Below, piece by piece: positions 6,856 to 63,845 of a DNA stretch of 64,000 bases. Positions within the stretch are counted from its first letter, which is position 1. Every line of letters starts with the position of its first letter. The notes beneath the pieces were generated by a model. The model was not told the DNA's origin. It searched no databases and was given only the letters and a program-made list of their open reading frames with translations. The position numbers and the translations under genes are program-made. The stretch comes from a virus, in the IMG/VR virus record IMGVR_UViG_3300048834_000258, positions 1-64,000 of that record. The stretch is one strand, 5' to 3'.

Positions 6856-6937
6856 AGAAAAGAGGGCAGATTGGCGTCCGCCCTCTCGTCCGTTTGTGTG
6901 GCGCGAAGCGCCACGGGGGTCTACAACTAGTGTACCA
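6856..6937 (-). ncRNA. GTTGTAGAC-family unit 1 (promoter, leader/sRNA, terminator) upstream of the Clp ATPase
   Basis: TGG-TACACT-AGTTGTAGACCCCC, hairpin GTGGCGC-TTC-GCGCCAC, then AGAGGGCGGA...TCTGCCCTCT-TTT. Confidence 0.55.
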
Positions 6938-6941
6938 CTAA

Positions 6942-6966
6942 TGGCGCGTAGCGCCAATGGTAAAAT
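6942..6966 (+). promoter_or_regulatory. Portal promoter: palindrome plus extended -10
   Basis: TGGCGC-GTA-GCGCCA then ATGG-TAAAAT, 10 nt before ATG 6977. Confidence 0.6.
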
Positions 6967-6976
6967 AGAAGTAGCG

Positions 6977-8911
6977 ATGGCTGAAGAACTTAACGATTCC
7001 CTCGTACTTTCGACTGACCCGACTCCGGGCTACGAAGACATCACGAAGCAGCTTGCGCTGTCTCGGGTGGTGCAGACGTTCTTCAAGTACGAGACTTGGC
7101 GGCAGCGCAACTACGACCTCAAGTGGCGGCACCTCCAGGAGCTTTATAACGGGGTGGTACCCAGACGGTTCTGGGAAGGCACTACGACCGAGAGAGCTTC
7201 GCTCTCTGTGCGACTCATTCACTCCCAGGTCCAGAGCGTTCTCCCTCTTCTGCACCAAGCATTGTTTGGGTCTGACATTGAGTGGTTCAAAGTTGCCGCC
7301 ATTGGCGAGACTTCTACGCAGGAAGCAGCGGAGGTGCAAGCGCGGCTACTGTACCTGTGCGAGCACCCAACGGATCGGTTTGGGAACAATGTGCGTAACC
7401 AAGTTACGCTTACTCTCAATGATTTGCTTGTCAAAGGTATCGCCATTCTTGCTTTGCAAGTAGATCCGCTTACGCTGGAGCCTGTAGCCAATCGTATCTC
7501 GCCGCTGGACTTCTATGTCGATCCCGCTTGCGGGCCGGACATTGAACAGGCGAAATCGGTTATTTGGCGGCGCACGCTGACGCTGGATCAGGTAGAGGCA
7601 CTGCGAGGGGCCGAAGGCTTTGATATCCCCGACAGGGGGACGCTCATGGAGTGTATTCAGAGTATGCCGTCGGCTATTGCAGATACGTCCCGGCAGATGG
7701 AAGAAAGTTCGCGGGGTGTTCAGTACAATCCGCTGTCCGACGGGCAGGGTGTGTTTGGCGCGGAGAGCAATCTTGAGGTATTAGTGTACTACACCAAGAC
7801 ACGGGTTGTTTGGGTGCTTAACAGACACTACGTTATTTACAATGGCGAGAATCCGTATGGGTTCTACCCGTTTACGGCGGCGACCTGCTTCTTCGACCCG
7901 GATCGGTTCTACGGGAATGGCTATTCCGATGTACTGGCCGATTTGCAGAAGTACATGCAGTCGATTCGTAATGCGCGACTGGACGAGCTTTCGCTGGCCT
8001 TGAATCCGCCGCGAGTGACCCGCGCTTCGCACGATCAGCGCATGACGTTTTCGCAGAGAGTGTGGCGACCGGGTGCTCAGTTGGCGACCGAGAATGGCAA
8101 GGACGATATTTCGGTCCAGGTGCCGTCGAATATTACACAGAATTCATATCAAGAAGAGAGTTGGATGCAACAGCAGGCCCAGGAGATGACCGGGGTGAAC
8201 TCCATGGTCCTCCAGGGTATGCCGATGCGGGGCAATGCTTCTGCGAGTGCAACTTCGGTAGGAGCGCAGCGCGAGGCTCCGTCGTTGCGGCTGCTGATGG
8301 TGGTTCTCTCTTTGGAGAATTATCTGTTGACGCCGATGTTGTATAAGATGTTGAAGATGCACCAGATTCATAATCAGGGCGATCTTCAGTTGAGAGGTAT
8401 GACGGCGGAAGGACAGACGCCTGTTGCGAATCAAAGTTTGCAGCGCGATGTGAAGTTCATGATGTTGTCTGCAACGCGGATGATGTCACGCGAGAAGCTG
8501 TTGCAGGTGTTCCCGTTCCTGACGCAGTATTTGCTCAATCCTGAGTTGATGGGGCACTTGCAACGGATCGGACTGGCGGTTGATATGGCGGAATGGGTCC
8601 GTATGTTGCAGGACGCCAGCGGCACGAAGCAAGTGTATCAGTTGGTGCGGCCTCTCAATGAACAGGAACAGCAGGCGCTCATGCAGCCGACGCCTGAGAT
8701 GATGCAGGATCAGCAGAAGACGAAGGCATCGAACGAAGTTCGCCTCGCGATGGCGGATAAGAAGAATCAGGCCGAGCAGATGAAGGTCCAGGGCAAACTG
8801 CAAGAGGTCGATAAAAAGACCGAGGCGGACATGAAGAAAGAGATGCTGTTGGCGGTTATGCAGCGAGTGATGGGCGGCGGCAACGCCGAAGGCGGCAACA
8901 GTGGCTCTTAG
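6977..8911 (+). CDS. Portal protein
   Basis: Follows TerL; ISPLDFYVDP, YPF...DPDRFYGNG, QEMTGVN and a Q-rich C-terminal barrel as in P22-like portals. Start reassigned to the ATG after the promoter. Confidence 0.85.
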   Translation: MAEELNDSLVLSTDPTPGYEDITKQLALSRVVQTFFKYETWRQRNYDLKWRHLQELYNGVVPRRFWEGTTTERASLSVRLIHSQVQSVLPLLHQALFGSDIEWFKVAAIGETSTQEAAEVQARLLYLCEHPTDRFGNNVRNQVTLTLNDLLVKGIAILALQVDPLTLEPVANRISPLDFYVDPACGPDIEQAKSVIWRRTLTLDQVEALRGAEGFDIPDRGTLMECIQSMPSAIADTSRQMEESSRGVQYNPLSDGQGVFGAESNLEVLVYYTKTRVVWVLNRHYVIYNGENPYGFYPFTAATCFFDPDRFYGNGYSDVLADLQKYMQSIRNARLDELSLALNPPRVTRASHDQRMTFSQRVWRPGAQLATENGKDDISVQVPSNITQNSYQEESWMQQQAQEMTGVNSMVLQGMPMRGNASASATSVGAQREAPSLRLLMVVLSLENYLLTPMLYKMLKMHQIHNQGDLQLRGMTAEGQTPVANQSLQRDVKFMMLSATRMMSREKLLQVFPFLTQYLLNPELMGHLQRIGLAVDMAEWVRMLQDASGTKQVYQLVRPLNEQEQQALMQPTPEMMQDQQKTKASNEVRLAMADKKNQAEQMKVQGKLQEVDKKTEADMKKEMLLAVMQRVMGGGNAEGGNSGS

Positions 8912-9245
8912 TCCTACGGAGTTCGAGCAAGCGGGGAAAGCCCGCGACCTTGCGGACCTGTCCTCCCATCCGGGGTGGGCGGTTCTTCTGTCGGCGCTAG
9001 CCGACAAAGAGAAGCAGTTGTTGGAAGAATTGGCTTTGCTGGACGAGCCGAAGGCTATTGTGCGGGCGAAAGATCACTGGAGTATCTTCCGGCATATTGT
9101 GCAGTTTATTACCAGCGCCCCCGAGAACGCTAAGATCAATGTCTTCGACATCAAAGAGGCCGAAGGGATTGATGATAGCACTCTGACGGTAGGCGCGTTC
9201 CTCAACAAAGTCCCTTATGGATCGGATCAGTTACCTTTAGTGTAA
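8901..9245 (+). CDS. Small helical protein between portal and scaffold
   Basis: Position and HPGW...L motif typical of post-portal proteins. Confidence 0.6.
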   Translation: MALSPTEFEQAGKARDLADLSSHPGWAVLLSALADKEKQLLEELALLDEPKAIVRAKDHWSIFRHIVQFITSAPENAKINVFDIKEAEGIDDSTLTVGAFLNKVPYGSDQLPLV

Positions 9246-9288
9246 ATGTTATCATGGTCTTAGGGACGATTCCCACATAGGAGAGACA

Positions 9289-10159: not shown

Positions 10160-11197
10160 ATGGCTTATACCCCGGCATCCGTTATCCTGCAAGGCAATAC
10201 TAACTTGCAGCACAATTATACGGGCGGCTCCGCTTCCGGCCTGTATATTTTCCACTACCAGACCAAGGCTCTCGATACTCTTCAGAAGAAGTTCGTGTTT
10301 ATGGACGTTCTGAAGTTGGACGATATGCCCAAGCAGTCTGGCAATACTGTTCAGTGGTATCGTTACCGCGAACTGGGCACCAACACCACGGCGGTCGGCT
10401 CCGCTGCGGAAGGCGCGGTCGGCACTGCGATTCCCGCGCTCAACAGCGATATCATTACGGCCACGCTGTCTCAGTACATGGACTTCGTTACGCTGTCGGA
10501 TCGGGTCATCCTGACTTCGATTGACGGTATGGTGCAGAGTGCCACTGAGCGCATGTCTTACCGGGCAGCGTACACTGTGGATATGATTACCCGTGCGGAA
10601 ATCGATAGCATTTCGGCGGCTGATCGTAGCTCGGCGCTGCTGGGCACTTACCTGAGTTCCGGCGACATTCGCCTGTCTCATGCGTATTTGCAGGGCAACG
10701 ATGTCCGTCCAATGCAGAGCGGCTCCTGTGCAGGCTACTTCTGCGGCATTATCCACCCGTACATTGTGTTCGACGTGGTGAATGATCCCGCCGCGAACGG
10801 TATTGTTGACGTGCGCAAGTACACTGAAGGCAACCCGTTCGAGAAGGTCGAAGACCGTGGGCAGGCGTTCACTTTCAACGGCATCATGTTCAAGGTGTCT
10901 ACGAATGTGCTGGTCGCTTCGAGCAACTACCGCACCTACATCTTCGGCGATGGTGGCATCGGTGGTTCGCAGCTTGCGGGCAAGGGGCCGTCCAAGGTTT
11001 CCGATCCTCGCAATCAGCGGTTCCGGCTGCACGTTGAGGGTAACCTTGCGCCGTCTCTGGCGAACCCCACCGGCTCCATTGGTGGCTTTGTGTCCTACAA
11101 CTTCTACTATGTTGCGAAGGTGCTGACTGACACCCTGACGGGCGGATCGACCTTCAATCGGTTTATCTACTACGATACTCCGACCCAGGTTTCCTAG
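10160..11197 (+). CDS. Major capsid protein (N4-gp56-like, HK97 fold)
   Basis: DMPKQSGNTVQWYRY, ATLSQYMDFVTLSD, GIIHP motifs. Own extended -10 (TGT-TACAAT), AGGAGG SD and downstream terminator. Confidence 0.88.
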   Translation: MAYTPASVILQGNTNLQHNYTGGSASGLYIFHYQTKALDTLQKKFVFMDVLKLDDMPKQSGNTVQWYRYRELGTNTTAVGSAAEGAVGTAIPALNSDIITATLSQYMDFVTLSDRVILTSIDGMVQSATERMSYRAAYTVDMITRAEIDSISAADRSSALLGTYLSSGDIRLSHAYLQGNDVRPMQSGSCAGYFCGIIHPYIVFDVVNDPAANGIVDVRKYTEGNPFEKVEDRGQAFTFNGIMFKVSTNVLVASSNYRTYIFGDGGIGGSQLAGKGPSKVSDPRNQRFRLHVEGNLAPSLANPTGSIGGFVSYNFYYVAKVLTDTLTGGSTFNRFIYYDTPTQVS

Positions 11198-20208: not shown

Positions 20209-20274
20209 AAAACGCACAAAGGGCGGCACAATGGCCGCCTCTCTGTGTTTTGGTGGTCTACAACCAGTGTAGCA
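20209..20274 (-). ncRNA. GTTGTAGAC-family unit 2
   Basis: TGC-TACACT-GGTTGTAGACCACC, long stem CACAGAGAGGCGGC/GCCGCCCTTTGTG, then T-tract. Confidence 0.55.
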
Positions 20275-21073: not shown

Positions 21074-21163
21074 GAAATCCTCCTCTGGCGCACAGCGCCG
21101 ATTGACTTACACAGACAGGATAACACGGGTCCACCCGGACTGCAATGGTAAAATAGTAGTAGG

Positions 21164-27873: not shown

Positions 27874-27960
27874 TGGTATGCTTGTTGTAGACACCAACCC
27901 CACGAGAGGACAGACGCCGACGCCCGTTGGCTCTGTCCTTTTGTGTTTTCTGTGCGTTTT
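27874..27960 (+). ncRNA. GTTGTAGAC-family unit 3
   Basis: TGG-TATGCT-TGTTGTAGACACCAACCC, stem CACGAGAGGACAGA/TCTGTCCTTTTGTG, then T-tract. Confidence 0.55.
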
Positions 27961-29077: not shown

Positions 29078-29110
29078 AAAACCAGTTTCGCACAGAAAAG
29101 CGAAAAATGC

Positions 29111-29177
29111 AAACGAAAAAGGCAGGCCACTTTCGCGGCACTGCCTCTTCCGGGGTTGGTCTACAACCAGTATAGCA
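29111..29177 (-). ncRNA. GTTGTAGAC-family unit 4
   Basis: TGC-TATACT-GGTTGTAGACCAACCCC, stem GAAGAGGCAG..GCCGC-GAAA-GTGGC-CTGCCTTTTTC. Confidence 0.6.
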
Positions 29178-46401: not shown

Positions 46402-46478
46402 AAAACGCAAAAGGAAAACGGCGGAACCGCTCTCACGGAATCCGCCGCTCTCCGGGTGGTTGCACTACTATTCTACCA
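46402..46478 (-). ncRNA. Variant family unit 8
   Basis: TGG-TAGAAT-AGTAGTGCAACCACCC, stem GGAGAGCGGCGGA/TCCGCCGTTTTCC, then T-tract. Confidence 0.45.
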
Positions 46479-50176: not shown

Positions 50177-50282
50177 TTGTATTTTGGCGCGTCTAGCGCC
50201 AAAATAGTTGTAGACCACCACAGCGGCAGCGGGACCGCCAAGTCCCCTGTCCTGCGGTAAACCGCCCGCTTCGCGGGTTTGC
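50177..50282 (+). promoter_or_regulatory. Promoter plus GTTGTAGAC-family unit 5 (leader of paralogue B)
   Basis: TTGTAT-17-CAAAAT-AGTTGTAGACCACC; spacer palindrome ATTTTGGCGC/GCGCCAAAAT; downstream hairpins. Confidence 0.55.
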
Positions 50283-50301
50283 AAAGCAAACGGAGGTTCC
50301 A

Positions 50302-51984: not shown

Positions 51985-52483
51985 ATTGATTCGAGACGGT
52001 GAGAGTCTGGTCTCTGCCAGATTCAAGTCTAGCGGAACTGAGATACCCGTTTATGACGATGGATTCGGTCCGCTCTACATTCATCGCGATTCTATGGGAG
52101 TTAGCGGAATCGTGAGAGCGCAAACATGGGAAGACGCCTACAGTATTTGCGAAGACGAGTTTTTCCCCGAAGCAACGGAAACGTTGGAAGAAATCGTCAA
52201 GGAATACGGATTTCGGCGTGAACACAAGAAAGTGGTAGACGACTCTGGCCAGTTTGTACGCTGGGAAACGGTAGAAACACCCGACCCTGACGCTTGGATC
52301 GAGAATGCATTGTTCTGTGAGGCGTTCGGCTTCCGTTCCAGTGGTCCGAACGTTACAGACACTCTAAATCACGGCATCTATGCCAAGGATCTGAACGGGG
52401 ATTTTTTAGACCGTCTCACGCGAAAATTGCTGGATCAACTGGGAATCGAACTGACAATCGAAACGAATGAGGAAATCGACTAA
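51974..52483 (+). CDS. Acidic hypothetical early protein
   Basis: GGAG SD; overlaps the previous gene. Confidence 0.6.
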   Translation: MKTELIRDGESLVSARFKSSGTEIPVYDDGFGPLYIHRDSMGVSGIVRAQTWEDAYSICEDEFFPEATETLEEIVKEYGFRREHKKVVDDSGQFVRWETVETPDPDAWIENALFCEAFGFRSSGPNVTDTLNHGIYAKDLNGDFLDRLTRKLLDQLGIELTIETNEEID

Positions 52484-54483: not shown

Positions 54484-54876
54484 GAGTCCAGTATCCCGCC
54501 GTGTGCTAGCACACGCAAGCAAACAAAGGGCGAAGGATCGATAGATTATTTTTATGGGAGCTTCGCTCCGCAAATACTTGAGTGGAAGAGACTCAAGTAT
54601 TGGATATGTGAGTGTGAGACACTCAGATGCTAAGAATTTAGCACACCGCACGTCCCTTGCCAAACTACAAGTGTAGTAAATCGGATTTATAGGTCCATTA
54701 ACGAAATTAATGGCCTTTCGGGCCTGTCAGCTAGTACCATGAGGCTAGAATCCTCGCTACAGTACCGTGCCGCTAAGCTCCATTATGTAACCTTTCGTCT
54801 TTTTCGCTGTAAGCCCTTACACTATACAACTGGCCTATATTCAGACATGCGTGTCCGAATTAATTATGTTTAATGT

Positions 54877-55016
54877 GGGGAGGGGTCGGGGGAGGGGGCA
54901 CTGCGTGCCTGGGGTCGTAAACCGTTGATTTTAAAGGGAAAGAAGGTTCCTTGCCGGGGTATGGGGTGGGGTCCCTTTTTTGTGGGGAGGGGTTGGGGCG
55001 GGGTTTGGGGTGGGGG
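54877..55016 (+). repeat. Dense G4/G5 tracts with an IHF-like site
   Basis: G4-A-G4-TC-G5-A-G5 and a six-tract run at 54984-55016; AATCAACGGTTTA on the minus strand at 54918-54930. Confidence 0.75.
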
Positions 55017-55218
55017 CGCAGCCCCCACTGTCTCCGGCCCAAACCAAGAAGGTTCCTAACTTTTTGATTCCCTTGGCGGGGAATTCGTTGCATCTATCTT
55101 AGCGAATATTTCTGAGAATTTCCTATCAATAACAAAACTAATCTTCGCCCTTTGTTCCCCTTGGGGGAACGCGCTTCCGGGGGCCGGAAGGGACCTTTAG
55201 CCCCTTCCACTAACCCCT

Positions 55219-55569
55219 TTATTTGTAATCACTTAGCACCTTAGCCACTTTCTTCGACAGCCGGTCCACATCCTCTTCAATTTCAAGCAGTTGCGCCCGC
55301 AAAGAATCTCCTAAGTCGGATCTCTGCGGCCTCGCGGCCAACAACGTCGGCAAGTAGCTCTCCGCTACCGCATAGTCCCAAGCCTGCAAAAGCCACTCCA
55401 CTCCCATCTCGTTCGTCTCAATCAGTCGCGCGGCTTCCCACTTGGAGCGATTGTCACGAATCCACAAAAAGAACATCTCCCTGGCGCTACTCGCCGAATC
55501 CGCCATGGACAAAACGTGCGTCTTCCACTTCCGCGCCCCGTTCTCCAAATACTCAATCGTGTACGTCAT
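55219..55569 (-). CDS. Hypothetical protein
   Basis: GGAGGGCAAATG start; ATGA coupling. Confidence 0.55.
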   Translation of the reverse strand: MTYTIEYLENGARKWKTHVLSMADSASSAREMFFLWIRDNRSKWEAARLIETNEMGVEWLLQAWDYAVAESYLPTLLAARPQRSDLGDSLRAQLLEIEEDVDRLSKKVAKVLSDYK

Positions 55570-55877
55570 TTGCCCTCCTTCGGGGCTTTCGCTCCGGCGC
55601 TTAAAACACTTTGCCGCTCCTTCTGCAACTGCTCCGACCACCAATCAAGTACGAGCCGCTTCGCGTTTGTCTCCCCTCGCGCCCCCAAATACTCGCGTAT
55701 CTGTATAACCGCGTCGTTCCGCCCTATGCGGCGCTGCGCTGCCGCGCTCTGCGCATATACCGTGTACCACTCAGTCTCCGACCGAGCGGTCTGAGACACT
55801 CCCAGGTTATAACCACTGACAGCACAAGTCGCCGCCAGAAAAGTCAACCACGCTAAATGCAACAACGCTTTCTTCAT
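55566..55877 (-). CDS. N-terminally membrane-anchored protein
   Basis: MKKALLHLAWLTFLAATCAVSG. Confidence 0.5.
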   Translation of the reverse strand: MKKALLHLAWLTFLAATCAVSGYNLGVSQTARSETEWYTVYAQSAAAQRRIGRNDAVIQIREYLGARGETNAKRLVLDWWSEQLQKERQSVLSAGAKAPKEGK

Positions 55878-56464
55878 TTGCCCTCCTGCGCCTGCGCCTC
55901 CGGCGCTCCGAAACAATCAGACATGGCCAGTGCCCAAAATTTGGTGGCCTTTTCCGGGAACCGGCAGGCTGCCGTAATTTGCTCTACTCCGTACCAAATC
56001 ACGGAATCCGATACCTCCGGTTCCCATTGTGTCCAACACTCGGCCAACTTACCCAGAAACATCTTCGCCTCCAGGTACGTCGCCACGTTGTCCATCTCCT
56101 TAACAATCGGCAAATCGCACGCCACCCCAAACTTCCCACAAATCACACGCCTTGCGCGATCCTCCGCCTGCCGATATGCAAGCATGTCCGGCCTGTGCTT
56201 AATCGGCTTCGGCATATCCTTCAGATAGGCTTCGCCCGCGTCATGGAGCAGCGCACACTTCCAAAGCTCTCTATCGTCCGTCGCGCTGCGCACCAACTCG
56301 TAAACCACCAGCGTATGCTGCGCGACCGTCCACCCACCCGCGTTCCCGCCGAAGCGCACCTCATGTGCCAAGTTATGGACGATATCGCTCAACTCGATGT
56401 CCTCCGCGCGTAGCGCAAACGGATCAACGACTTTACCACTTCCCATTTGAATGCGGTAGCTCAT
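55874..56464 (-). CDS. HD-domain 5'-deoxynucleotidase (YfbR/YfdR-like)
   Basis: DIVHNLA...RFGG...TVAQH...ALLHDAGEAY..D.P.P.K. Confidence 0.85.
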   Translation of the reverse strand: MSYRIQMGSGKVVDPFALRAEDIELSDIVHNLAHEVRFGGNAGGWTVAQHTLVVYELVRSATDDRELWKCALLHDAGEAYLKDMPKPIKHRPDMLAYRQAEDRARRVICGKFGVACDLPIVKEMDNVATYLEAKMFLGKLAECWTQWEPEVSDSVIWYGVEQITAACRFPEKATKFWALAMSDCFGAPEAQAQEGK

Positions 56465-56745
56465 CAGAAGCACTCCTCGGCGAACTGCTTTGCCTTCTCA
56501 CGGTCCTCAAAATAGTAGGTCACGTCCGGTTCGCGCTGCGCCGTCCCAAAGAACTTCACCTCATACGCCTGCACATCTGCGCACAGCGCCGCCATTCCCA
56601 ACCGCGCCACCACTTCCGCCGACTCGTCGCACACCAGCCACGCCGTATGCTCCTTGTCGATCCAATGCGTCTTTCGCGCTGCCCGCGCTTGGCGCACCAA
56701 GTCCTTAGCCATTAACGCCGTCTGAAAACTCAACATATCTGGCAT
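56464..56745 (-). CDS. Hypothetical protein
   Basis: AAGGAGG SD; TGATG coupling. Confidence 0.55.
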   Translation of the reverse strand: MPDMLSFQTALMAKDLVRQARAARKTHWIDKEHTAWLVCDESAEVVARLGMAALCADVQAYEVKFFGTAQREPDVTYYFEDREKAKQFAEECF

Positions 56746-56864
56746 AAATCCTCCTTCGGAGCCTTTGGCTCCACTCCCATCTTACCCCTTTCTTGCAAGA
56801 AAAACTACTACTTTTTTTTCTTGCAGGCGCAAAGCGCCCGTGCTATCCTAAGTGCGGAGGTCCA

Positions 56865-57131
56865 ATGGCTCGCAAACCAATCGAACGCCCGCGCACAACA
56901 CTTGTGCCCCTACCGTGCCGCTGGTATGCCCCCGGCAAATTCGCACACAACCCCAACTGGGAGTTGCACACCCTTTGCGAAGGCTACTTCCTGGCCGAAA
57001 TTGCCCAGGACGGACCCAACTACTTCGTCTTTGTTCCCGGCGCGAAAGTCCCCGAACTGCCCTTCCCGACGGCCCACGCCGCCAAAGAATGGGCCGAGAC
57101 CTACCTCGCCGACCCCAACAACTTCAAATAG
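56865..57131 (+). CDS. Hypothetical protein
   Basis: TTGCAG-17-TATCCT promoter (56821-56849) containing GGCGC-AAA-GCGCC; GGAGG SD. Confidence 0.6.
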   Translation: MARKPIERPRTTLVPLPCRWYAPGKFAHNPNWELHTLCEGYFLAEIAQDGPNYFVFVPGAKVPELPFPTAHAAKEWAETYLADPNNFK

Positions 57132-57158
57132 CGCCTAGCGCAAGAAAGGAACCGCCCC

Positions 57159-57539
57159 ATGCCCGCACGCACCAAAAAGACTCCCATCGTACTTGTGTAC
57201 GATCCCACCGACGAAGGACGCTTTGCTTTCTATGACGAGGGCACTCTCGCTTTCGAAGGCTCTGACGAAAACAACCACTACTTCGACTTCCTCGCCTTCT
57301 GTCAAAAGTTCAACATCCCTTACGAAGAACGCGAGATGCTCGAAGGTCTTGAAGGCGAGGAATTTCCCCGCAAACTCGAAGATCTGAAGCCGAAGGTTTC
57401 CGTTCACGTCGAAATCGATACGTGGGATGAAGCCGAATACCTGAACATCGCGACCGACGATACCGGCCTCGGTTGGGTCTCCAAAGCCGACGCCATCGAG
57501 ATCCGCGACCGTCTCGTGGAGGCCCTCGGCAAATGCTAG
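57159..57539 (+). CDS. Acidic protein, tandem paralogue 1
   Basis: FAFY...EEFP..LEDL...DEAEYL. Confidence 0.6.
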   Translation: MPARTKKTPIVLVYDPTDEGRFAFYDEGTLAFEGSDENNHYFDFLAFCQKFNIPYEEREMLEGLEGEEFPRKLEDLKPKVSVHVEIDTWDEAEYLNIATDDTGLGWVSKADAIEIRDRLVEALGKC

Positions 57540-57880
57540 CCACCCGAACCGAACTACCGAACGAGCCGCGCCGCTGGCGGCTCGTCTCCTCGGCCCGCGC
57601 CGAACCGGGACGCGACTTCGCCATCTACATTGACAACTACCTTTACTGCATCGGAGATGCGGGTCTCGAAGCGATTCTTCTTGAGACGAAGACTCCCTTC
57701 ATCCCCGAAATGACAGAACGGGAGAAGTTCCCCGAGTTCTTCGAAGATCTCATCCACACAACCGACATCGACATCGACTGCCTCGCGACCGACGAAGCGG
57801 CTTTTCTGCGCCTCGATGGACGCTATTACACACGCCGCCAAGCGGAGCACATCTACAACGCGCTAAAAGCGCACTTCTAA
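57533..57880 (+). CDS. Acidic protein, tandem paralogue 2
   Basis: FAIY...EKFPEFFEDL...DEAAFL. Confidence 0.6.
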   Translation: MLATRTELPNEPRRWRLVSSARAEPGRDFAIYIDNYLYCIGDAGLEAILLETKTPFIPEMTEREKFPEFFEDLIHTTDIDIDCLATDEAAFLRLDGRYYTRRQAEHIYNALKAHF

Positions 57881-57957
57881 ACGCACAAAAGGCGGAACCA
57901 AAGCCGCTCGGCCTCGGATTCCGCCCTTCGTGTGGTGGGTCTACAACCAGTTTAACA
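57879..57957 (-). ncRNA. GTTGTAGAC-family unit 6
   Basis: TGT-TAAACT-GGTTGTAGACCCACC, stem CACGAAGGGCGGAA/TTCCGCCTTTTGTG. Confidence 0.55.
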
Positions 57958-57958
57958 T

Positions 57959-57986
57959 AAAAGGGGAGCCGGGTGGCTCCCCTTTT
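57959..57986. terminator. Terminator of the 58007-58513 gene
   Basis: AAAAGGGGAGCC-GGGT-GGCTCCCCTTTT. Confidence 0.8.
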
Positions 57987-58006
57987 AGTTAGTTAGCGCC
58001 GAAGGC

Positions 58007-58513
58007 TTACAGGCCCGCGAAGTCGCCGTAGGCGCGGCTGTCAGCGCCCGCCTGGGGAGCGCACCACAGGACGACGAAGGCACCAGCGCCCTCGGTTTCC
58101 GGCGTGGTCCGCGTCACGTCGAAGTCCGCAGTCAACACGGAACCCGCCGCAATCGTGGTTTTGGTCGCGTCCAGGACGGGCGGGGTAACGCCGGTGCTGG
58201 CAGCATTCGCGTAGACAAAGCCCGCGCCCGCAGCCTTGGTGATGGTGCAGGTGGTGGTAAGAATGGAAGTGCCGGAAGTCGCGGCGTCAGCCCGCTTGTC
58301 CACGTCGATAACGACCTGCCAAGCATCGGTGCCGTCAACACCGTTGGTTACGATGCCCGCATTGATGCCGACAACTTCCACATCAAAGGGGAAGATGCCG
58401 CCAGGGACGCCGAGCACGTCAGCGGACAAAGTGCCCGACTGCATAATCACGGGAAAGAGCAGCGCCGTTCCGGGCGCAGCCGCGTTAGAGAGAAGCAAAA
58501 CACCATTAGCCAT
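58007..58513 (-). CDS. Probable capsid decoration / minor virion protein, solo transcription unit
   Basis: A/T/G/V-rich jelly-roll-like sequence (PFDVEV...VDK...SILT...TIAAG.VLT.D); own promoter GTGC-GAA-GCAC-ATGG-TAGAAT; AGGAGG SD. Confidence 0.55.
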   Translation of the reverse strand: MANGVLLLSNAAAPGTALLFPVIMQSGTLSADVLGVPGGIFPFDVEVVGINAGIVTNGVDGTDAWQVVIDVDKRADAATSGTSILTTTCTITKAAGAGFVYANAASTGVTPPVLDATKTTIAAGSVLTADFDVTRTTPETEGAGAFVVLWCAPQAGADSRAYGDFAGL

Positions 58514-58609
58514 AGTTTGGCCTCCTAGCTAGAAGTATAAGGATGCGCAATCCTACTATTATTCTACCATGTGCTTCGCACGCCATTAACTTTCCATAGT
58601 GGAAGGGTA

Positions 58610-58638
58610 TTGACAGCGGGCCAGAGGCCCGCTATACT
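58610..58638 (+). promoter_or_regulatory. Near-consensus sigma70 promoter with a palindromic spacer
   Basis: TTGACA-GCGGGCC-AGA-GGCCCGC-TATACT (17 bp spacer). Confidence 0.85.
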
Positions 58639-58861
58639 GAGATTGTCGCTCGGCGCAACCTCCCCGGTTGTCGTTAGTGGCAGGCCCGAGCTGGGCGGGG
58701 CGCGACGAAACCCGGCAAAGATTCGCCAACAGCCTCGGCTTAACGCTTGCAAGGTTGGCGAAGTCGCAGGTCTGGCGAATGTCACCGTAGGGTGGCCAGT
58801 AACCAGCGCATGTGGCCCCGAGTGTGGCGACGAATCGGGGCAATTTTCGAGGAGGTAAATC

Positions 58862-59224
58862 ATGAGTGTTTTTGGTGGATGGATCGGCGTGGACCTGGAT
58901 GGCACACTCGCTGAATATGACGGATGGAAGGGGCCGGAACACATCGGCAAGCCCGTCCCGGCGATGGCCTTCCGCGTCAAGAAGTGGCTGGCTGAAGGAA
59001 AGGACGTGCGGATCTTCACGGCACGAGTGTCGCATGACGGGTCTCCCGCTCGCGTGGCCGATGCAGCAGATGCTTCTGACGCCATTTCTAGTTGGTGCAA
59101 AGAGAACTTCGGCCAACGACTTCCGATTACAAACCAGAAAGACTACGCCATGGTGGAACTGTGGGACGACCGCTGCGTGCAGGTTGAACCCAACACCGGC
59201 AGAAGGGTGGATGGGAAGTCATGA
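58862..59224 (+). CDS. HAD-superfamily phosphatase (PNK phosphatase-like)
   Basis: IGVDLDGTL, IFTAR, K, WDDR. Confidence 0.8.
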   Translation: MSVFGGWIGVDLDGTLAEYDGWKGPEHIGKPVPAMAFRVKKWLAEGKDVRIFTARVSHDGSPARVADAADASDAISSWCKENFGQRLPITNQKDYAMVELWDDRCVQVEPNTGRRVDGKS

Positions 59225-59646
59225 GTGAACCGTTCAAGATGACGCCGGAAGAGATCAAGCAGGCGGAGGATATGTATGTCAACAGCGGGCCTTTCGGCTC
59301 ACTGACGCAGGTGTTCAACAAATTCCCGCGAATCTACGCATTCAGGCCCTACCGAGAGGGAGAGGAAGTGGTTACGCTGGACCGGACTTCGCTTGTTGTG
59401 AACCATAGTGGTGGTGACAGACCGCACTTCATCCTCCGCCCGCGCAAGAAGGTCACCGTGACCGACTACGTGTTTCGCGATACGGGGGAGACGCGGCTCC
59501 CAGACTACGGAGAGTGGTTTCGTTCTGGTGGGATGCTTGGCCTCGAAGATTATTTCCTGCAAGCGATGCCGGGAAATCTCTACACCAAACGCGAACGGAT
59601 CTACACCCGCGAGGAGATCACCCGCGAAATCGAGGTGGAGGAATGA
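59221..59646 (+). CDS. FRPP-family protein D
   Basis: EDMY...AFRPYREGE...PHFILRPRKK. Confidence 0.5.
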   Translation: MSEPFKMTPEEIKQAEDMYVNSGPFGSLTQVFNKFPRIYAFRPYREGEEVVTLDRTSLVVNHSGGDRPHFILRPRKKVTVTDYVFRDTGETRLPDYGEWFRSGGMLGLEDYFLQAMPGNLYTKRERIYTREEITREIEVEE

Positions 59647-59673
59647 TTCGGCGCAAAGCGCCGAAGAAATAGC

Positions 59674-59761
59674 TTGACAGATTTACCGCGAAGCGGTAAA
59701 TTAGTAGTGGACCCTCCTCACGAGAGACGCCGCGATGCTTGCATCCGGCGTTTTTCGTTTT
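59674..59761 (+). ncRNA. Variant family unit 9 with a full promoter
   Basis: TTGACA-17-TAAATT-AGTAGTGGACCCTCCT, stem ACGAGAGACGCCG/CGGCGTTTTTCGT, then TTT. Confidence 0.5.
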
Positions 59762-59798
59762 AGTTGAAATGATAAAATAGTCATAGGAGGCGTGTCCT

Positions 59799-60209
59799 AT
59801 GGCATTTACCTTTGTTAATGATGGGGAGCGAGTTGCCCTCGAACTTTTGCTCAACAAAACCGGGTCGTTGGCTAATACAGTTATGGGCCTGTACACCAAC
59901 AACCAGTCGATCTCTAACGCGGTTGTTTTAGGCGACTTGACCGAGGCGACTGGCAGCGGCTATAGCGCGATTACCCTTACGGGAGCCAGTTGGACGATTA
60001 CCGAGGGCGCTCCTACCAGCGCGGCTTTTCCCCAGCAGACCTTCACTTTCAGTGGAGCCATCGGTCCCATTTACGGCTACTTCATTAAGCATGGGACCAC
60101 TTTGATCGGGCTTGAGGCTTTTTCGGCTGGCCCCTATACATACACGTCAGCCGGTGGTACCCTAAAGGTGACGGTCAATTTGACCGCAGGATCTTCAACC
60201 AACGACTAG
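59799..60209 (+). CDS. Small tail-fibre-associated structural protein
   Basis: MGLYT...E.TGSGY...T...W...TFTF...IYGYFI; TGA-TAAAAT promoter and AGGAGG SD. Confidence 0.6.
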   Translation: MAFTFVNDGERVALELLLNKTGSLANTVMGLYTNNQSISNAVVLGDLTEATGSGYSAITLTGASWTITEGAPTSAAFPQQTFTFSGAIGPIYGYFIKHGTTLIGLEAFSAGPYTYTSAGGTLKVTVNLTAGSSTND

Positions 60210-60216
60210 GAGACGC

Positions 60217-60597
60217 ATGAGACACACCTTCTTCCTTCTCTGGGCCGTCCTTTTGACGGCCCTTCTTTTGCCCGCGCAGACCGCACAGCGCAAGGTGACC
60301 CTTAATTGGGATCACCCAGACGCGAACGTCACGTTCAACGCCTACATTTCTCCTGGAGATTGCCTGACGACTCCGACGTTTGTGAAGCACAACACCGCGC
60401 CCATCACGGCGAAGACCTATGAGATTACGGGGCTTGCCGAGGGCACGTACTGTTTCGCGGTGCGAGCCGAGCGGGACACGCTGGAGTCTGGAAACAGTAA
60501 CTTGGCCAGTGCCATTGTTGGCCCGCCGCCCGTCGTTCCTGGCGCTCCGACCGGGCTTAGCTTGAGCGTGTCGGTGACGGTAACCGTTAACCCCTAA
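60217..60597 (+). CDS. Signal-peptide-bearing fibronectin type III protein
   Basis: Hydrophobic N-terminus; VTLNWD...FNAY...YEITGL..GTYCFAVRA...ES..SN...PGAPTGL. Confidence 0.7.
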   Translation: MRHTFFLLWAVLLTALLLPAQTAQRKVTLNWDHPDANVTFNAYISPGDCLTTPTFVKHNTAPITAKTYEITGLAEGTYCFAVRAERDTLESGNSNLASAIVGPPPVVPGAPTGLSLSVSVTVTVNP

Positions 60598-62198
60598 TGC
60601 GCGTACTGATCGCTCTCTTGTGGGTGGCACTGGCGTTCGCGCAGCCGGTGCCGCCTACTAACCTTCGGGCGTCTACCAAACCCATGGCCACTTTCGTACA
60701 AGGCGCAGTTCCCACATCGGCGGCAGATCCGATCAGTTGCACGTTCTCTTCGGCTCCGACCGAGGGAAATCTGCTGATTGCGGCGATGTCCGAGCGGAGC
60801 GGGAATAGCACGACAAACCACACCATCAGTGGAAGCGGCTGGACAAAGCGGGTGGGGCGTGATGTGTCGCTACCATCGGGCGACAATAGACGCACCCTCA
60901 CGATCTGGACGAAAGTAGCGGGAGCCTCAGAGCCGTCTACCATCACAATGGATGATGGCGGGTCCGGTACATCAAAAAACGGTTTCGTCGCAGAGTACGC
61001 GCTGGAGAGCGGCGAAGACACCTGGGAATTTCTGGAAGCCGTATCAAACGACAACGGGGAAACCGATAACGCCACGAGTCTAGCCACCGGGACCACATCG
61101 TCGTTGTCTGGCACGCAGATGGTGGTGTTTGGCGTTGGATCGATGAAGGCGGCGAGCGGCGCTCCATCGGGCCATACCTGGGCGTCCGCGACGTTGACTG
61201 CTAATGTCAGTTCCTACCCGAGTGGCTTGGGCAGCTACGGGATGTGGCTCGGCATCGCGTCCGCGAACAGTGATAGCGCGGGGACGAAAGCCTCCACGAT
61301 GACGATGGGTGGCGGCCCGTCGAATGACGGGCTTACCGCTGCGATCCTGGTTTTCAATTTGGTGAGTGGCGGAGGTGGCGACGATTACACCCACTCTGGT
61401 ACCGGAGCTTTAGCCCTTTCTGGTTCCAATACCACAGTTCTAGACACCATTGTAAGCTCTTCTGGCAACCTAGCCGTTTCGGGCACTACCGGGATTGTGC
61501 TAGAGGCCATTGTCACCACTTCGGGGGCATTGACATTTACGGGGAGTCACGCTGCGGTCCTTGAAGCCATCGCAGCCGTTTCCGGCAACTTGACGCTATC
61601 TGGTAGTGCGGCTGTTGCACCTGATTGGGTAGTTAGTAGCTCCGGTGGTTTTCTATTAGGCGGCACGGGAGAACCTGTGCCCGGCTTCGATCTACTGGGA
61701 ACCGGGGCGCTTTCCCTGGGCGGCTCCGTCAGCGTAGAGTTTACCGAATCTGGCGATATTGTGTACTCCGGTACTGGCCATCTAGCCCTAGCCGGTGCTG
61801 CCTCCATTGTCCTAGACGCGATCACCTCTCAGTCGGGCAACCTCGCTTTAGGAGGCTCGGGCGCTATCGCCCCCGACTTCCTCATTGCGGGTACGGGGGC
61901 TCTCAGCTTAGCGGGTAGTTCGGCGCTTGTGCCCGAGTTTGTGCTTACGCCCTCGGGCAATTTGGCCCTAAGTGGCTCGATTGCGACTGAAGCTAACTTT
62001 GTCGTGGCGGTTTCGGGCGACCTGGAGTTGGGCGGAACGGCAGTCGTTGCGTATACCGGCCCCGTCTCTACGCAAGTAGCAACTTCTACAATTGTAGTAG
62101 TTCCGTGTGTGGCTACCGTGGTAAAATTAGATCATAGGACTGTTTTACTGCTACAGAAGCCCCGCACGGAGGTCTCTTTATGGAAAGACATCACGTAG
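60597..62198 (+). CDS. Signal-peptide-bearing fibre-like protein with about 20-aa repeats
   Basis: MRVLIALLWVALAFA|Q; about 11 repeats of (S/T)GxLxLxG. Confidence 0.6.
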   Translation: MRVLIALLWVALAFAQPVPPTNLRASTKPMATFVQGAVPTSAADPISCTFSSAPTEGNLLIAAMSERSGNSTTNHTISGSGWTKRVGRDVSLPSGDNRRTLTIWTKVAGASEPSTITMDDGGSGTSKNGFVAEYALESGEDTWEFLEAVSNDNGETDNATSLATGTTSSLSGTQMVVFGVGSMKAASGAPSGHTWASATLTANVSSYPSGLGSYGMWLGIASANSDSAGTKASTMTMGGGPSNDGLTAAILVFNLVSGGGGDDYTHSGTGALALSGSNTTVLDTIVSSSGNLAVSGTTGIVLEAIVTTSGALTFTGSHAAVLEAIAAVSGNLTLSGSAAVAPDWVVSSSGGFLLGGTGEPVPGFDLLGTGALSLGGSVSVEFTESGDIVYSGTGHLALAGAASIVLDAITSQSGNLALGGSGAIAPDFLIAGTGALSLAGSSALVPEFVLTPSGNLALSGSIATEANFVVAVSGDLELGGTAVVAYTGPVSTQVATSTIVVVPCVATVVKLDHRTVLLLQKPRTEVSLWKDIT

Positions 62199-62479
62199 TT
62201 AAGGATACTAAATGCCGTCTTACCTGCACTTTCTACGACATTTCGAACGCGCTGGCCGATCCTACCACAGTGACCTTCTCGATTAAGCTGCCTGCGGGCA
62301 CGACCACCACATACACCTACGGAACCGATGCGGAGTTGGTGCGGTCTTCGACTGGTGTTTACTACGTGGATTTCCTGTTTAACGCCAAAGGCGCGTACAT
62401 TTACCGCTTTCTGGGTGCTGGTTCGGTGGGTGCGCCGGGTGAGGGTACCGTGGACGTTGCCGAGAGTGCTCTAGCCTAA
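62180..62479 (+). CDS. Ig-like small structural protein
   Basis: ADPTTVTF.I..P.G...STGVYYVD.....G.Y.YRF. Confidence 0.6.
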   Translation: MERHHVVKDTKCRLTCTFYDISNALADPTTVTFSIKLPAGTTTTYTYGTDAELVRSSTGVYYVDFLFNAKGAYIYRFLGAGSVGAPGEGTVDVAESALA

Positions 62480-62509
62480 ATGCTAAAATAGTCATAGGAG
62501 ACTGAACCT

Positions 62510-62785
62510 ATGGCCTTTTTGCAGATTTTCGCTTTGATTCCCGTCCTCTGGGAACTTCTGGAGCGCATCATCAAGACTGTTGAGACCGAGGAGCTTCCTG
62601 GGTCTGAGAAGAAGCAGCTTGCGCTCGACGCGCTCAAATCCCTGGTCGAAGTAGTTGGGTCGATCCCTGGCGTGAAGGGCAAATTCTCTGCCGACTTTGT
62701 GGTCAACCTCGCTATCCCTATCATTGACATTGTTGTTGGCATTTTCAATGCCATCGGCATCTTCCGCAAGAAACCTGCCGCCTAA
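62510..62785 (+). CDS. Holin-like protein
   Basis: Hydrophobic ends, G.EKK motif and a basic tail; precedes a lysozyme-like gene. Confidence 0.5.
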   Translation: MAFLQIFALIPVLWELLERIIKTVETEELPGSEKKQLALDALKSLVEVVGSIPGVKGKFSADFVVNLAIPIIDIVVGIFNAIGIFRKKPAA

Positions 62786-62807
62786 AGGCAGTGCCGGGAC
62801 TTCGACC

Positions 62808-63353
62808 ATGACGCGCACAGAACTTATTTCCATGATGGCGGATGCCATCGAAATCAAGGAGGGGTACCACGCTAGACCGGGGCACCCCGACTATCCGACC
62901 ATTCCGCAGCAGCTTTGTAACCCTGGCAACGTTCGGCGCTGGAGTGCCAAGCATCCGACAGCTTACGGTTACATCGACTTCTATCAATGGGAGTTGAACA
63001 AGACCGGCTCGGTCGAGCCGCTTATGCCGCGCCGCCCTGTTCGGTCTGCCTCCAAAAAGCAGCGCCGCGAAACCTTAGATAAAATTCTAAGCGAAATGGC
63101 GAAGCGGCCCGCAGAGCGCGTCCGTTCGGCCCAAGCCGAAGGTCGCAGGGTGCTCGAAGCACTGATCGGCCAGTACATTGACGGGAAGTACACGAACGGG
63201 AAGTCGCCTTCGATGCTCGGCATGTTCCAGGTGTACGCGCCGTCTTCGGACGGCAACGAGCCGTTCACTTACGCGCAGTTTGTAGGAGAACGGTGCGGGT
63301 TCGACCGCAAGACGATTATGGAAACGCCTCTAAAGGAGTTAGTTAGTGACTAA
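62808..63353 (+). CDS. Putative endolysin (lysozyme-like NPGN...YAP family)
   Basis: AI...EG, CNPGN, F, EG...L, YAPSSDGN.P..YA.FV. Confidence 0.6.
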   Translation: MTRTELISMMADAIEIKEGYHARPGHPDYPTIPQQLCNPGNVRRWSAKHPTAYGYIDFYQWELNKTGSVEPLMPRRPVRSASKKQRRETLDKILSEMAKRPAERVRSAQAEGRRVLEALIGQYIDGKYTNGKSPSMLGMFQVYAPSSDGNEPFTYAQFVGERCGFDRKTIMETPLKELVSD

Positions 63354-63567
63354 CGAACATCTCGACCGAATTTTTACCTACCGCGCCCCTTTCGGGGATC
63401 AGCCGGAAAGGTACGTCAAGATTAGGCAAGCCGCCAAAGATTTCGCGCAATTGGTGCAGGATGCGTGTCCCGAATCTCGGGAGAAATCCACTGCTCTGAC
63501 AAACATTCAACAGGCGGTGATGTGGGCAAATGCCAGCATCGCCATCAACGAGGAGCAAAGCTCATGA
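63346..63567 (+). CDS. Acb2/Tad1-like helical hairpin protein (putative immune-signal sponge)
   Basis: FTY.AP...Q..RY..IR.AAK.FA......CP.SREKS.A.T.IQQAVMWANASIA. Confidence 0.7.
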   Translation: MTNEHLDRIFTYRAPFGDQPERYVKIRQAAKDFAQLVQDACPESREKSTALTNIQQAVMWANASIAINEEQSS

Positions 63568-63770
63568 GTAAATTCACTGAATGGTTGGAGGGCGAGGGTG
63601 CCAAGATCTTTACGATGAGCGCCCTTTGTCTGGTGTTTTTCGCGGCGGAAGTGGCGATCAAGGTTTGGGTGCCGGAGAGCGAGCAGCTTCAGGGGCAGAT
63701 CGGCTCGATTGCCGCTGGCTTTGGCGGAGCGTTGCTCGCGATCCTACGACCTCCGCAGGCGACGAAATAA
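63564..63770 (+). CDS. Two-TM membrane protein
   Basis: ATGA coupling; two hydrophobic helices. Confidence 0.55.
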   Translation: MSKFTEWLEGEGAKIFTMSALCLVFFAAEVAIKVWVPESEQLQGQIGSIAAGFGGALLAILRPPQATK

Positions 63771-63775
63771 CGGCG

Positions 63776-63845
63776 AAAACTCAAAACCCCAGACGACCGT
63801 CCGCATTGCGGAGCGGCCATCCTGGGGTCTACAACTAGTCTAACA
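63776..63845 (-). ncRNA. GTTGTAGAC-family unit 7
   Basis: TGT-TAGACT-AGTTGTAGACCCCAGGATGGCCG...CGGTCGTCTGGGGTTTT. Confidence 0.55.

Follow-up and report, generated by a model that had tools for sequence, protein, structure and literature searches.

The DNA analysed here, referred to as the window, comprises positions 1–64,000 of a 73,567 bp IMG/VR virus record (IMGVR_UViG_3300048834_000258) that is rated complete and represents an uncultured phage (G000), and this study concerns a family of nine short units dispersed in it, in which a promoter-like hexamer is followed by the motif GTTGTAGAC or a variant of it, a run of C and A and a terminator-like hairpin. The gene map, which was drawn from a codon-usage score and family searches and is crude, is podovirus-like: the genes for TerL, the portal, the capsid and the tail as well as three large open reading frames (ORFs) occupy the + strand up to 27.9 kb, the replication genes lie on the − strand from 50 to 28 kb, and small divergent operons are found between 50 and 64 kb. 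The family searches (Pfam and PHROG) covered 106 ORFs, with bulk results comprising the best 25 of 31 and the best 25 of 45 families.

Seven exact copies of GTTGTAGAC are present in the window, with 0.33 expected and seven reached in none of 100 shuffles, and the whole 73,567 bp record holds no further copy. They are located at 6919–6927, 20256–20264, 29159–29167, 57939–57947 and 63827–63835 on the − strand and at 27884–27892 and 50207–50215 on the + strand. A preliminary description of this DNA had reported seven intergenic copies, each behind a −10-like hexamer; all seven were recovered, the coordinates given there being those of the first base of the TGn or −10 box. The hexamers (TACACT twice, TATGCT, TATACT, CAAAAT, TAAACT and TAGACT) vary, as had been described, and yet the spacing from hexamer to motif is exactly 1 nt in all seven copies. 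Six of them carry a TGn extension, as do seven of the nine units overall, and unit 5 instead carries TTGTAT-17-CAAAAT. Two further sites, at 46478(−) and 59697(+), which had been listed as AGTAGTG variants, have GTAGTG in place of GTTGTA and otherwise the same build; a relaxed pattern search gave no tenth unit. Five of the seven exact copies fall in gaps of the gene call. Of the remaining two, one is within a 5′ extension of the portal ORF that lacks conservation, and one is within an ORF (49817–50329) that scores low and is not conserved in the relative G001. All seven copies are outside conserved coding sequence, as the proposal of an intergenic family had implied.

Behind the motif follows a run consisting of C and A only, which is at least 4 nt long in 14 of the 14 copies from G000 and G001 and has a mean length of 7.8 nt versus 0.96 nt after other GAC sites, and behind this run lie a GC-rich hairpin and a T tract. 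The sequence common to the units amounts to only about 20 nt. T7-type primase sites, read as the complement of GAC(C/A)(C/A), were considered for the junction of motif and run and were dropped, because three of the four C/A combinations fit by composition alone.

A terminator rule was applied that required a hairpin of −10 kcal/mol or lower, with its end no more than 2 nt from a run of at least three T and located 25–75 nt past the start. All nine units pass this rule, although unit 5 has only TTTG as its T tract, in agreement with the linker, hairpin and U-tract described previously with the same exception, and the predicted RNAs measure 42–69 nt, somewhat shorter than the 50–75 nt first proposed. 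The same rule is passed by only one of 13 other extended −10 promoters, where the match spans a start codon (p = 2.4e-4 in a Fisher test that scores unit 5 as failing). The defining hairpin lies 4–54 nt past the predicted start and is followed by the T tract, and the hairpins of paralogous units share no sequence. The bases of the hairpins are lengthened by G–U pairs (GAGAG with CUUUU) that are available only in RNA made in the direction of the unit, and in units 6 and 7 a T tract is missing from the reverse strand, which indicates that the hairpins serve the units' own direction.

The start site was predicted with the aid of a second class of extended −10 promoters, of which about 11 intergenic copies are found (for example TGGTAAAAT-AGAAGTAGG and TGTTACAAT-AATAAGTAGGAGG). 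This class reads TG(G/T)TA(A/C)AAT (TGGTAAAAT/TACAAT) followed by AnnnGTAGG and precedes structural and other genes; its members lie at 6958, 10128, 11299, 12837, 21146, 59770, 62481 and 63871 on the + strand and at 31812 and 58569 on the − strand of the window, with one more outside it at genome position 64617(+) (L085, about 817). In these promoters, the Shine–Dalgarno (SD) sequence or the ATG itself begins 7–8 nt past the hexamer. In three cases (6977, 11314 and 21164) the ATG is 1–5 nt past the predicted start, and these mRNAs would be leaderless or nearly so, while the remaining promoters have the SD sequence at the very 5′ end of the predicted mRNA. This arrangement fixes the usual start geometry for this host. 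Together with a σ70-type start 7 nt past the hexamer, it suggests that the +1 of the units should be the A of TAGAC, flanked by T at −1 and G at +2. This would place GTTGTAGAC at −5 to +4, with AGAC as its sole transcribed part. The hexamer ends in CT in six of the seven G000 units and in seven of the seven G001 units, and the 11 second-class promoters end in AT, so that the conserved element is probably best written as CT-n-GTTGTAGAC, from −8 to +4, which would correspond to the downstream half of the transcription bubble. On this assignment, GTTGTAGAC would be mostly promoter DNA and the RNAs would have AGAC alone in common. The common RNA 5′ end GUUGUAGAC of the preliminary description is thus not supported, the conserved block extending in the opposite direction, into the hexamer; its alternative, an operator overlapping +1, survives in part, in that a DNA-level element fits the anatomy better than an RNA motif.

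Two other promoters deserve mention. The best −35/−10 match of the scanned 20 kb, TTGACA-17-TATACT (11/12), lies in 58610–58861(+), carries a hairpin of 7 bp with a 3 nt loop in its spacer and is followed by an untranslated leader of about 225 nt before the gene at 58862; this region may be a structured leader or an RNA gene. In the phage Tunturi_3, positions 31069–31138 (L178, about 1440–1530) hold a consensus promoter with the leader GTAGTAGACACCACCACAG before the SD sequence, resembling GTTGTAGACCACCACAG of unit 5, and the upstream sequence AAGAAATAGCTTGACA matches 16 nt upstream of unit 9 without a difference. This likeness may reflect a shared, perhaps acidobacterial, host promoter style, or chance.

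The existence of the units is confirmed, and their conservation is strong. Among 45 stretches returned by a pattern scan of IMG/VR, the relatives are seven loci from four contigs. The one full relative, G001 (61,847 bp), has about 82% DNA identity to G000, is mosaic with 66–93% identity per segment, and contains exactly seven copies of GTTGTAGAC, all at orthologous places. Differences between G000 and G001 were counted over the eight shared units, with the third codon positions of eight genes as a baseline. The motif shows no difference in 72 positions (0%), whereas the third codon positions differ at 33% of about 3,100 sites; at this rate, the probability of 0/72 is near 3e-13 by our own arithmetic. 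The −10 box (7/72, 10%), the linker (13/151, 9%), the stems (14/173, 8%) and the T-rich tail (5/80, 6%) differ at intermediate rates, the loops and bulges differ at 11 of 42 positions (26%), and the flanks differ at 160 of 843 (16–24% over three flank classes). The conservation in related phages that the preliminary description had made a test of its proposal is therefore borne out. Every orthologous hairpin still folds. In unit 7 of G001, the inner hairpin sequence has been replaced, and the new hairpin folds at −30.7 kcal/mol with the T tract kept, while the orthologue of unit 8 has TAGACT and G–C to G–U changes in the stem. The tails drift between orthologues by A/C exchange, with their C/A composition kept. 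The conservation of stems against free loops (8% versus 26%) points to selection on structure and not to mere co-inheritance.

Individual units show the same pattern on a finer scale. Across four lineages, among them G001 and three contig fragments, unit 1 shows 100% identity over about 190 nt, whereas the flanking genes differ by 7–17% in protein. Unit 4 is conserved in G001 and in the metagenome contig L169. In G001, homology at unit 2 sets in about 30 nt ahead of the −10 box, beyond which the gene has diverged or been replaced, and unit 5 forms an island of conservation with both flanks diverged; in L169, unit 3 has a different sequence upstream of the −10 box. Unit 9 is missing from G001 together with the entire 58.9–62.5 kb segment. 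Contigs of four DNA runs from four studies of freshwater or wastewater sites, which were compared with the window and gave relatives only, contain in four of four runs a joint 50291→50650 just past unit 5.

Wider searches added little to this set of lineages. A search with the Lon-like protease returned 25 loci, and among the 16 read only the four close ones are syntenic with unit 1 kept; the capsid gave only the three close relatives, and the 805-residue protein gave nothing. No DNA match was found in 50,697 phage records in near or distant mode, 185,579 species genomes gave 36 single matches at chance level, none with the build of a unit by eye, and the Joint Genome Institute (JGI) metagenome contigs gave 49 stretches with one relative (L169). 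A few unrelated metagenome promoters (for example in L139 and L157) have the same bases after a consensus promoter but no terminator, and were treated as chance matches. Of the eight GTWGTAGAC sites in Tunturi_3, a single one is placed at a promoter or leader, and there is no unit family in this phage. In the present data, the unit family is restricted to one small clade.

With regard to their neighbours, the nine units fall into those with and those without a gene behind them. Genes lie behind units 1, 3, 4, 5, 8 and 9, and neither an SD sequence nor a gene is found downstream of units 2, 6 and 7, which end 3–15 nt from the stop codons of convergent + strand genes, as had been noted before. 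Unit 1 (6858..6937, −) consists of TGGTACACT, A, GTTGTAGAC, a small hairpin (GTGGCGC-TTC-GCGCCAC), the terminator hairpin and TTTTCTGT, with a predicted start at 6922 and an RNA of about 65 nt. It is the only visible promoter of the Lon-like protease gene at 5754–6824(−), which is inserted backwards between the TerL and portal genes, and the terminator lies in the leader of this gene. Unit 1 stands back-to-back with the portal promoter TGGTAAAAT at 6958(+), and unit 7 stands in the same way against another second-class promoter; with 26–31 bp between the hexamers, two polymerases could hardly sit together at either place. Unit 2 (20210..20274, −; TGCTACACT, G, GTTGTAGAC, CACCAAAACACA, hairpin, TTTGTGCGTTTT) begins 10 nt past the stop of the gene at 20285–21073(−) and ends against a convergent stop codon (about 20197), with a predicted start at 20259 and an RNA of about 42–50 nt.

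Unit 3 (27874..27950, +; TGGTATGCT, T, GTTGTAGAC, ACCAACCCCAC, hairpin, TTTTGTGTTTT) begins 4 nt past the stop of the 805-residue gene at 25453–27870, the last of the large ORFs, and has a predicted start at 27889 and an RNA of about 54 nt. Its surroundings, as first described, need correction, because a conserved ORF of 47 residues (27978–28121, +; MRRVPRNPYVKAVKNRSG...AERWRR) follows directly behind it, with no evident promoter of its own. This ORF, which ordinary ORF lists miss, is basic and rich in arginine and lysine, and five of the six differences between G000 and G001 in its first 22 codons are synonymous in an alignment read by eye. The protein had no family match and gave no lead from Protein Atlas; from its composition it is a candidate nucleic-acid-binding regulator. 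Unit 4 (29110..29177, −) reads TGCTATACT, G, GTTGTAGAC, CAACCCC, a hairpin with a GAAA loop and TTTTTCG, has a predicted start at 29162 and an RNA of about 47 nt, and lies between the primase/helicase-like gene at 29345–30187(−) and the 81-residue gene at 28832–29077(−). Unit 5 (50177..50285, +) reads TTGTAT-17-CAAAAT, A, GTTGTAGAC, CACCACA and two hairpins, the second of which is followed merely by TTTG; its predicted start is 50212, and it heads a + strand operon with genes from 50302.

Unit 6 (57885..57957, −; TGTTAAACT, G, GTTGTAGAC, CCACCACAC, long hairpin, TTTTGTGCG) lies behind the terminator of the gene at 58007–58513(−) and ends 3 nt from the stop of the convergent gene at 57473–57880(+), with a predicted start at 57942 and an RNA of about 56 nt. 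Unit 7 (63780..63845, −; TGTTAGACT, A, GTTGTAGAC, CCCA, 41 nt hairpin, TTTTGAGTTTT) points into the end of the gene at 63465–63770(+), with a predicted start at 63830 and an RNA of about 48 nt; its back-to-back partner is the promoter TGTTACAAT (63871) of the gene at 63903(+). The two variants complete the set. Unit 8 (46410..46478, −; TGGTAGAAT, A, GTAGTGCAACCACCC, hairpin, TTTTCCTTTT) reads TGGTAGAAT-A-GTAGTGCAACC across the start region, with a predicted start at 46462 and an RNA of about 48 nt, and behind it a TATACT that is unchanged in G001 lies 6 nt before the ATG of the phosphoesterase gene at 45884–46399(−). Unit 9 (59674..59760, +; TTGACA-17-TAAATT, A, GTAGTGGACCCTCCTCAC, hairpin, TTTTTCGTTTT) reads TTGACA-17-TAAATT-A-GTAGTGGACC, where a simple promoter scan also found a promoter, and has a predicted start at 59710 and an RNA of about 46 nt; behind it, a separate promoter TGATAAAAT (59770) serves the gene at 59799–60209. 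The second promoters that the preliminary description had placed behind units 4, 8 and 9 are thus clear for unit 9, plausible for unit 8 and weak for unit 4. Its statement that the units are not simple leaders stands, since convergent genes face the ends of three of them and a separate promoter stands behind unit 9. The proteins beside the units matched no family of known function. In unrelated phage contigs (L066, L077 and L065), a Lon-like protease lies 1–2 kb from a homologue of the phosphoesterase at 45884–46399 (29–37% identity), and in one of these contigs it is near homologues of 51956–52483 and of a Sak4-like gene; in the present genome, unit 1 precedes the protease gene and unit 8 that of the phosphoesterase.

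GC-rich perfect hairpins with a 3 nt loop are abundant in the record, with 105 examples versus 27 ± 4 in shuffles. C-GAA-G or C-TTC-G loops and GGCGC/GCGCC-like stems are frequent among them, and the hairpins occur both within and between genes (for example at 6898–6914, 6942–6956, 21087–21099, 51547–51561, 56826–56838, 59647–59665 and 59681–59701). Several abut or overlap −10 boxes, and extra spacer hairpins are present at units 1, 5 and 9. These hairpins resemble the hairpin promoters of the N4 virion polymerase. Such a role may be conceived for them in view of the capsid gene at 10160–11197(+), the homologues of which (40–46% identity) are named N4-gp56 family by JGI, although evidence of a virion polymerase was not found. 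The order TerL, portal, capsid and three large ORFs parallels that of N4, in which the virion RNA polymerase sits last; the large ORFs in 21164–27870(+), of 804, 618 and 805 residues, close the late block without a family match, and PDB sequence searches with them returned nothing meaningful. The capsid has 29% identity to that of the Tunturiibacter phage Tunturi_3, its closest cultured relative by capsid, and an acidobacterial host is possible, judged solely from this match.

Several other features of the genome were recorded. The TerL gene at 2752–5757(+) contains an insert of about 400 residues (about residues 120–520) that is absent from three relatives, in which TerL aligns as residues 1–119/123 joined to 521/524–1001; the insert looks like an intein or homing element. 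A ParA-type ATPase gene (genome 71069–72575; L085 7269–8775) is preceded by at least six GCCTCTATGGAGGCATA-like repeats, and a fragment of an IS66-type transposase lies at the contig end (genome 73045–73542), a combination that suggests plasmid-like partition or a contig end that is not purely phage. Positions 53988–55218 form a stretch of 1.2 kb without a convincing gene, the counterpart of which in G001 is about 78% identical; its + strand carries GGGGAGGGG, GGGGTGGGG and GGGGTTGGGG runs that are G-quadruplex-like, especially at 54870–55030, and that are trivially complementary to the C-rich tails of the units. The pentapeptide-repeat gene at 44043–44537(−) has many matches to a tandem array at the end of G001 and very high contig depth in four of four metagenome runs (bin 44001–44667); this signal is that of a common repeat and is not phage-specific. 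A search for tRNA and tmRNA genes found none.

The reading of the nine units that we favour, and to which we would give an even chance, is that they form a class of promoters for the host polymerase that are regulated together and are each coupled to a promoter-proximal terminator. The strict register of the hexamer, the extension of the conserved block into it and the position of the block mostly ahead of the predicted transcript together argue for a role at the DNA level in the open complex. The anatomy of the units, the statistics, the pattern of conservation and the changes that preserve structure are direct observations; that the promoters are active, where transcription begins, that it terminates, that the class is co-regulated and what the short RNAs might do are all deduced from the sequence. 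In this scheme, host RNA polymerase with its primary sigma factor would read nine autonomous short transcription units from promoters of the extended −10 type or, in units 5 and 9, of the −35/−10 type. The invariant CT-n-GTTGT-A(+1)GAC block would cover the downstream bubble, fix the start at the A and mark a promoter class whose members share a control at initiation or promoter escape, with either the polymerase itself or a putative phage factor as its agent. Each promoter would be coupled to an intrinsic terminator behind a G/U-free C/A run. The coupling of promoter to terminator would make a short RNA the default product, of 42–69 nt with pppAGAC, a C/A tail, a hairpin and a U tail, and would leave downstream genes that lack their own promoter with an attenuated or regulated supply. 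For these genes (the protease behind unit 1, the 47-residue protein behind unit 3 and probably the gene behind unit 4), the terminator would act as an attenuator that passes only a fraction, or a regulated fraction, of the transcripts.

Several points weigh against this scheme. Initiation at the units is predicted rather than read from transcripts, no RNA run being among those listed for positions 54001–64000 of the window, and a common control acting through a putative regulator is a deduction of the same kind. A promoter class alone leaves the gene-less units 2, 6 and 7 unexplained, as well as the kept G/U-free tail. GTAG around +1 is common to both promoter classes, so that part of the block may be the start context preferred by the host. 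The conservation rests on few lineages, since one full relative and a few fragments are available, and the search for a T7-like polymerase (PF00940) had no working positive control and is hence uninformative.

The gene-less units would be accommodated if the short RNAs themselves are the purpose, as a multi-copy trans-acting family built from AGAC, a C/A tail, a hairpin and a U tail, in which the conserved block merely secures initiation; we regard this as a serious rival or complement of the favoured reading, with appreciably less than an even chance. Such RNAs might be sponges or decoys for a host protein that binds single-stranded RNA or senses RNA, or they might be base-pairing regulators. 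The separate promoter behind unit 9 and the G–U-extended hairpins and T tract that work only in the direction of the unit agree with this proposal, and units 2 and 3 share the layout of small RNAs of 3′ untranslated regions that have their own promoter. The tail changes in sequence but stays C/A in composition, and its pairing to the 80-odd phage translation starts is no better than that of shuffled tails, which makes a protein platform or decoy likelier than base-pairing seeds. The same result counts against trans-acting RNAs that pair, and it speaks against the anti-SD-like regulators of the preliminary description, for which CCUCCU had been cited and fits unit 9 only. The Rfam search proposed there gave no match at the gathering score on either strand of the 64 kb window, and the most conserved bases (−8 to −1) would lie outside RNAs that are themselves only predicted. 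If instead GTTGTAGAC is an operator of a phage repressor or activator over the +1 of dispersed promoters, in the manner of the P1 C1 sites, its asymmetry, its invariance (0/72 changes in G001) and its dispersal over promoters would follow, and the ParA-like protein and the repeated GCCTCTATGGAGGCATA-type (iteron-like) sites at 71.1–72.6 kb would be in keeping with such a genome. We consider this unlikely: the strict 1 nt register in seven of seven copies and the extension into the hexamer point to a function bound up with the open complex and not to an operator standing by itself, no helix–turn–helix protein is among the families listed (including the best 25 of 31 and the best 25 of 45), and the terminators and C/A runs are left unexplained.

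Decidedly less probable is the proposal that the −8 to +4 block is an open-complex loading site for a phage factor that is Q- or RfaH-like in action, non-homologous and rides the polymerase, and that, at all nine sites simultaneously, would decide whether the polymerase stops at the nearby hairpin or reads through it. Joint activation would extend to the genes behind units 1, 3, 4 and 8, including those for the protease, the phosphoesterase and the 47-residue protein, and timed antisense RNA would run from units 2, 6 and 7 into convergent operons. Units 1 and 3 do need read-through, and the succession of promoter, start-proximal element and terminator within 70 nt is the lambdoid PR′–tR′ layout (PMC7547250); antisense transcripts over late genes are reported for the N4-like phage LUZ7 (PMC9163698). 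On the other hand, no Q, N or NusG-like protein is among the families listed, although the Q families were not searched individually, a −10-like pause element would end in a T that TAGACC does not have, and read-through from units 2, 6 and 7 would oppose the phage's own genes. We place still less weight on the motif being the core promoter of a phage sigma factor or polymerase, with the start in the C/A run and TGnTAnnCT as part of the promoter. The gene order (TerL, portal, capsid and large proteins last) is like that of phiEco32 and N4, the capsid belongs to the N4-gp56 family by the names of its homologues at 40–46% identity, and the phiEco32 and 7-11 elements of the TAATGTATA or tttGATGTAGAC type share TGTA(G/T)A with the motif (PMC4331800). 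However, no Sigma70_r2 or r4_2 match was found at E ≤ 1 in six frames, with controls positive in 11 and 14 of 14 genomes, 35 phiEco32 proteins including gp36 gave no tblastn match, the three large ORFs have no PDB sequence match, and TGn and a hexamer in perfect register are what a host holoenzyme would read. It is equally doubtful that the units are mainly recombination or insulation junctions similar to PeSL cassettes, conserved through genome exchange and not through a function of the motif. Mosaic breakpoints do occur at units 2 and 5 in G001 and at unit 3 in L169, the joint past unit 5 is found in all four runs, and GC-rich hairpins with 3 nt loops abut or overlap several −10 boxes much as in the PeSLs (PMC2839356). 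Yet stems and loops differ at 8% versus 26% of positions, paralogous hairpins have no common sequence and hence little homology for exchange, and only about 20 nt are common to the units.

If the units are indeed a co-regulated promoter class with built-in terminators, their interest is more general. Phages that rely on host polymerase throughout infection need some means of dividing their promoters into classes, and only a few such means are known. In this genome, the two classes apparently differ mainly in the bubble and start region and not in the −35/−10 boxes, and one class is systematically wired to its own terminator. Should the block be a regulatory handle, it would represent a compact new control of a dispersed regulon at initiation or attenuation; should the RNAs act in trans, they would be a rare multi-copy family of phage small RNAs. 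In either case, nine natural promoter–terminator pairs with graded hairpins provide material on the interplay of start site and proximal terminator, a value limited by the phage being uncultured.

The literature on phage promoter-proximal terminators, short RNAs and phiEco32 promoters, supplements excluded, describes no such family, and the string GTTGTAGAC occurs in unrelated contexts among the matches listed by title and start of abstract. The promoters recognized by the gp36 sigma factors of phiEco32 and 7-11 are like the motif in being a single element with TGTA(T/G)A, one 7-11 site reading tttGATGTAGAC (PMC4331800). Their genomes have a similar layout, but a sigma gene is not detectable here, tblastn shows no similarity to phiEco32, and, unlike at gp36 promoters, a complete host-type extended −10 box stands directly upstream of the motif. 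Base-pairing small RNAs of the seed type carry a conserved single-stranded seed complementary to their targets; here, the tails differ among units and drift between orthologues. The oop RNA of phage lambda, of 77 nt, comes from a self-contained promoter-to-terminator unit directed into a convergent gene at its 3′ end, but there is only one such unit and it overlaps the coding end of cII. By comparison, units 2, 6 and 7 stop at or before the convergent stop codon and overlap at most the terminator region. The C1 operators of phage P1 are asymmetric, highly conserved and present at many promoters of a phage genome with plasmid partition genes, features that GTTGTAGAC shares with its asymmetry, conservation, dispersal at promoters and the partition genes in the record; the P1 sites are 17 bp long, vary in position relative to the hexamers and are not coupled to terminators. 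Both oop and the C1 operators are offered as analogies only.

The lambdoid PR′ region combines a Q-binding element with a −10-like pause site, in place of which the units have the −8 to +4 block, and the sole candidate for a pause element in them, TAGAC(C/A) at −1 to +5, is without the final T of the consensus. A terminator soon after the promoter is found in eight or nine of the nine units, and several units have no gene behind them, unlike PR′–tR′. A lambdoid genome has one such site and the present genome nine, and no Q homologue is among the families listed for the 106 ORFs, in which Q families were not searched one by one. The lambdoid PR′–tR′ regions (6S RNA and StxS) are like the units in that a promoter with a nearby intrinsic terminator yields a short RNA by default and read-through decides the expression of the downstream genes (PMC7547250).

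The closest published family is that of the PeSL cassettes of the T4-type phages RB49 and phi1 (Arbiol et al. 2010, PMC2839356). As described there, the PeSLs are many dispersed strong σ70-type promoters joined to GC-rich terminating stem-loops, which are sited at variable gene cassettes with mosaic breakpoints at the cassettes. The nine units agree in having extended −10 or −35/−10 consensus sequences, as predicted for strong promoters, and in having breakpoints at units 2, 3 and 5, the latter in a small sample of genomes. They differ in the placement of the stem-loop, which in PeSLs lies upstream of or inside the promoter and stops incoming transcription, with an SD sequence and a gene following (PMC2839356), whereas the terminator of the units lies downstream of the start and would stop the unit's own transcript. 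Three of the units are also gene-less, and an invariant −8 to +4 block is not described for PeSLs. Several promoters of this phage nevertheless carry a stem-loop in or beside the spacer, as PeSLs do. In conclusion, the units are a variant of the known phage promoter/terminator cassettes, distinguished by the invariant block at the predicted start and by a terminator that serves the unit itself.

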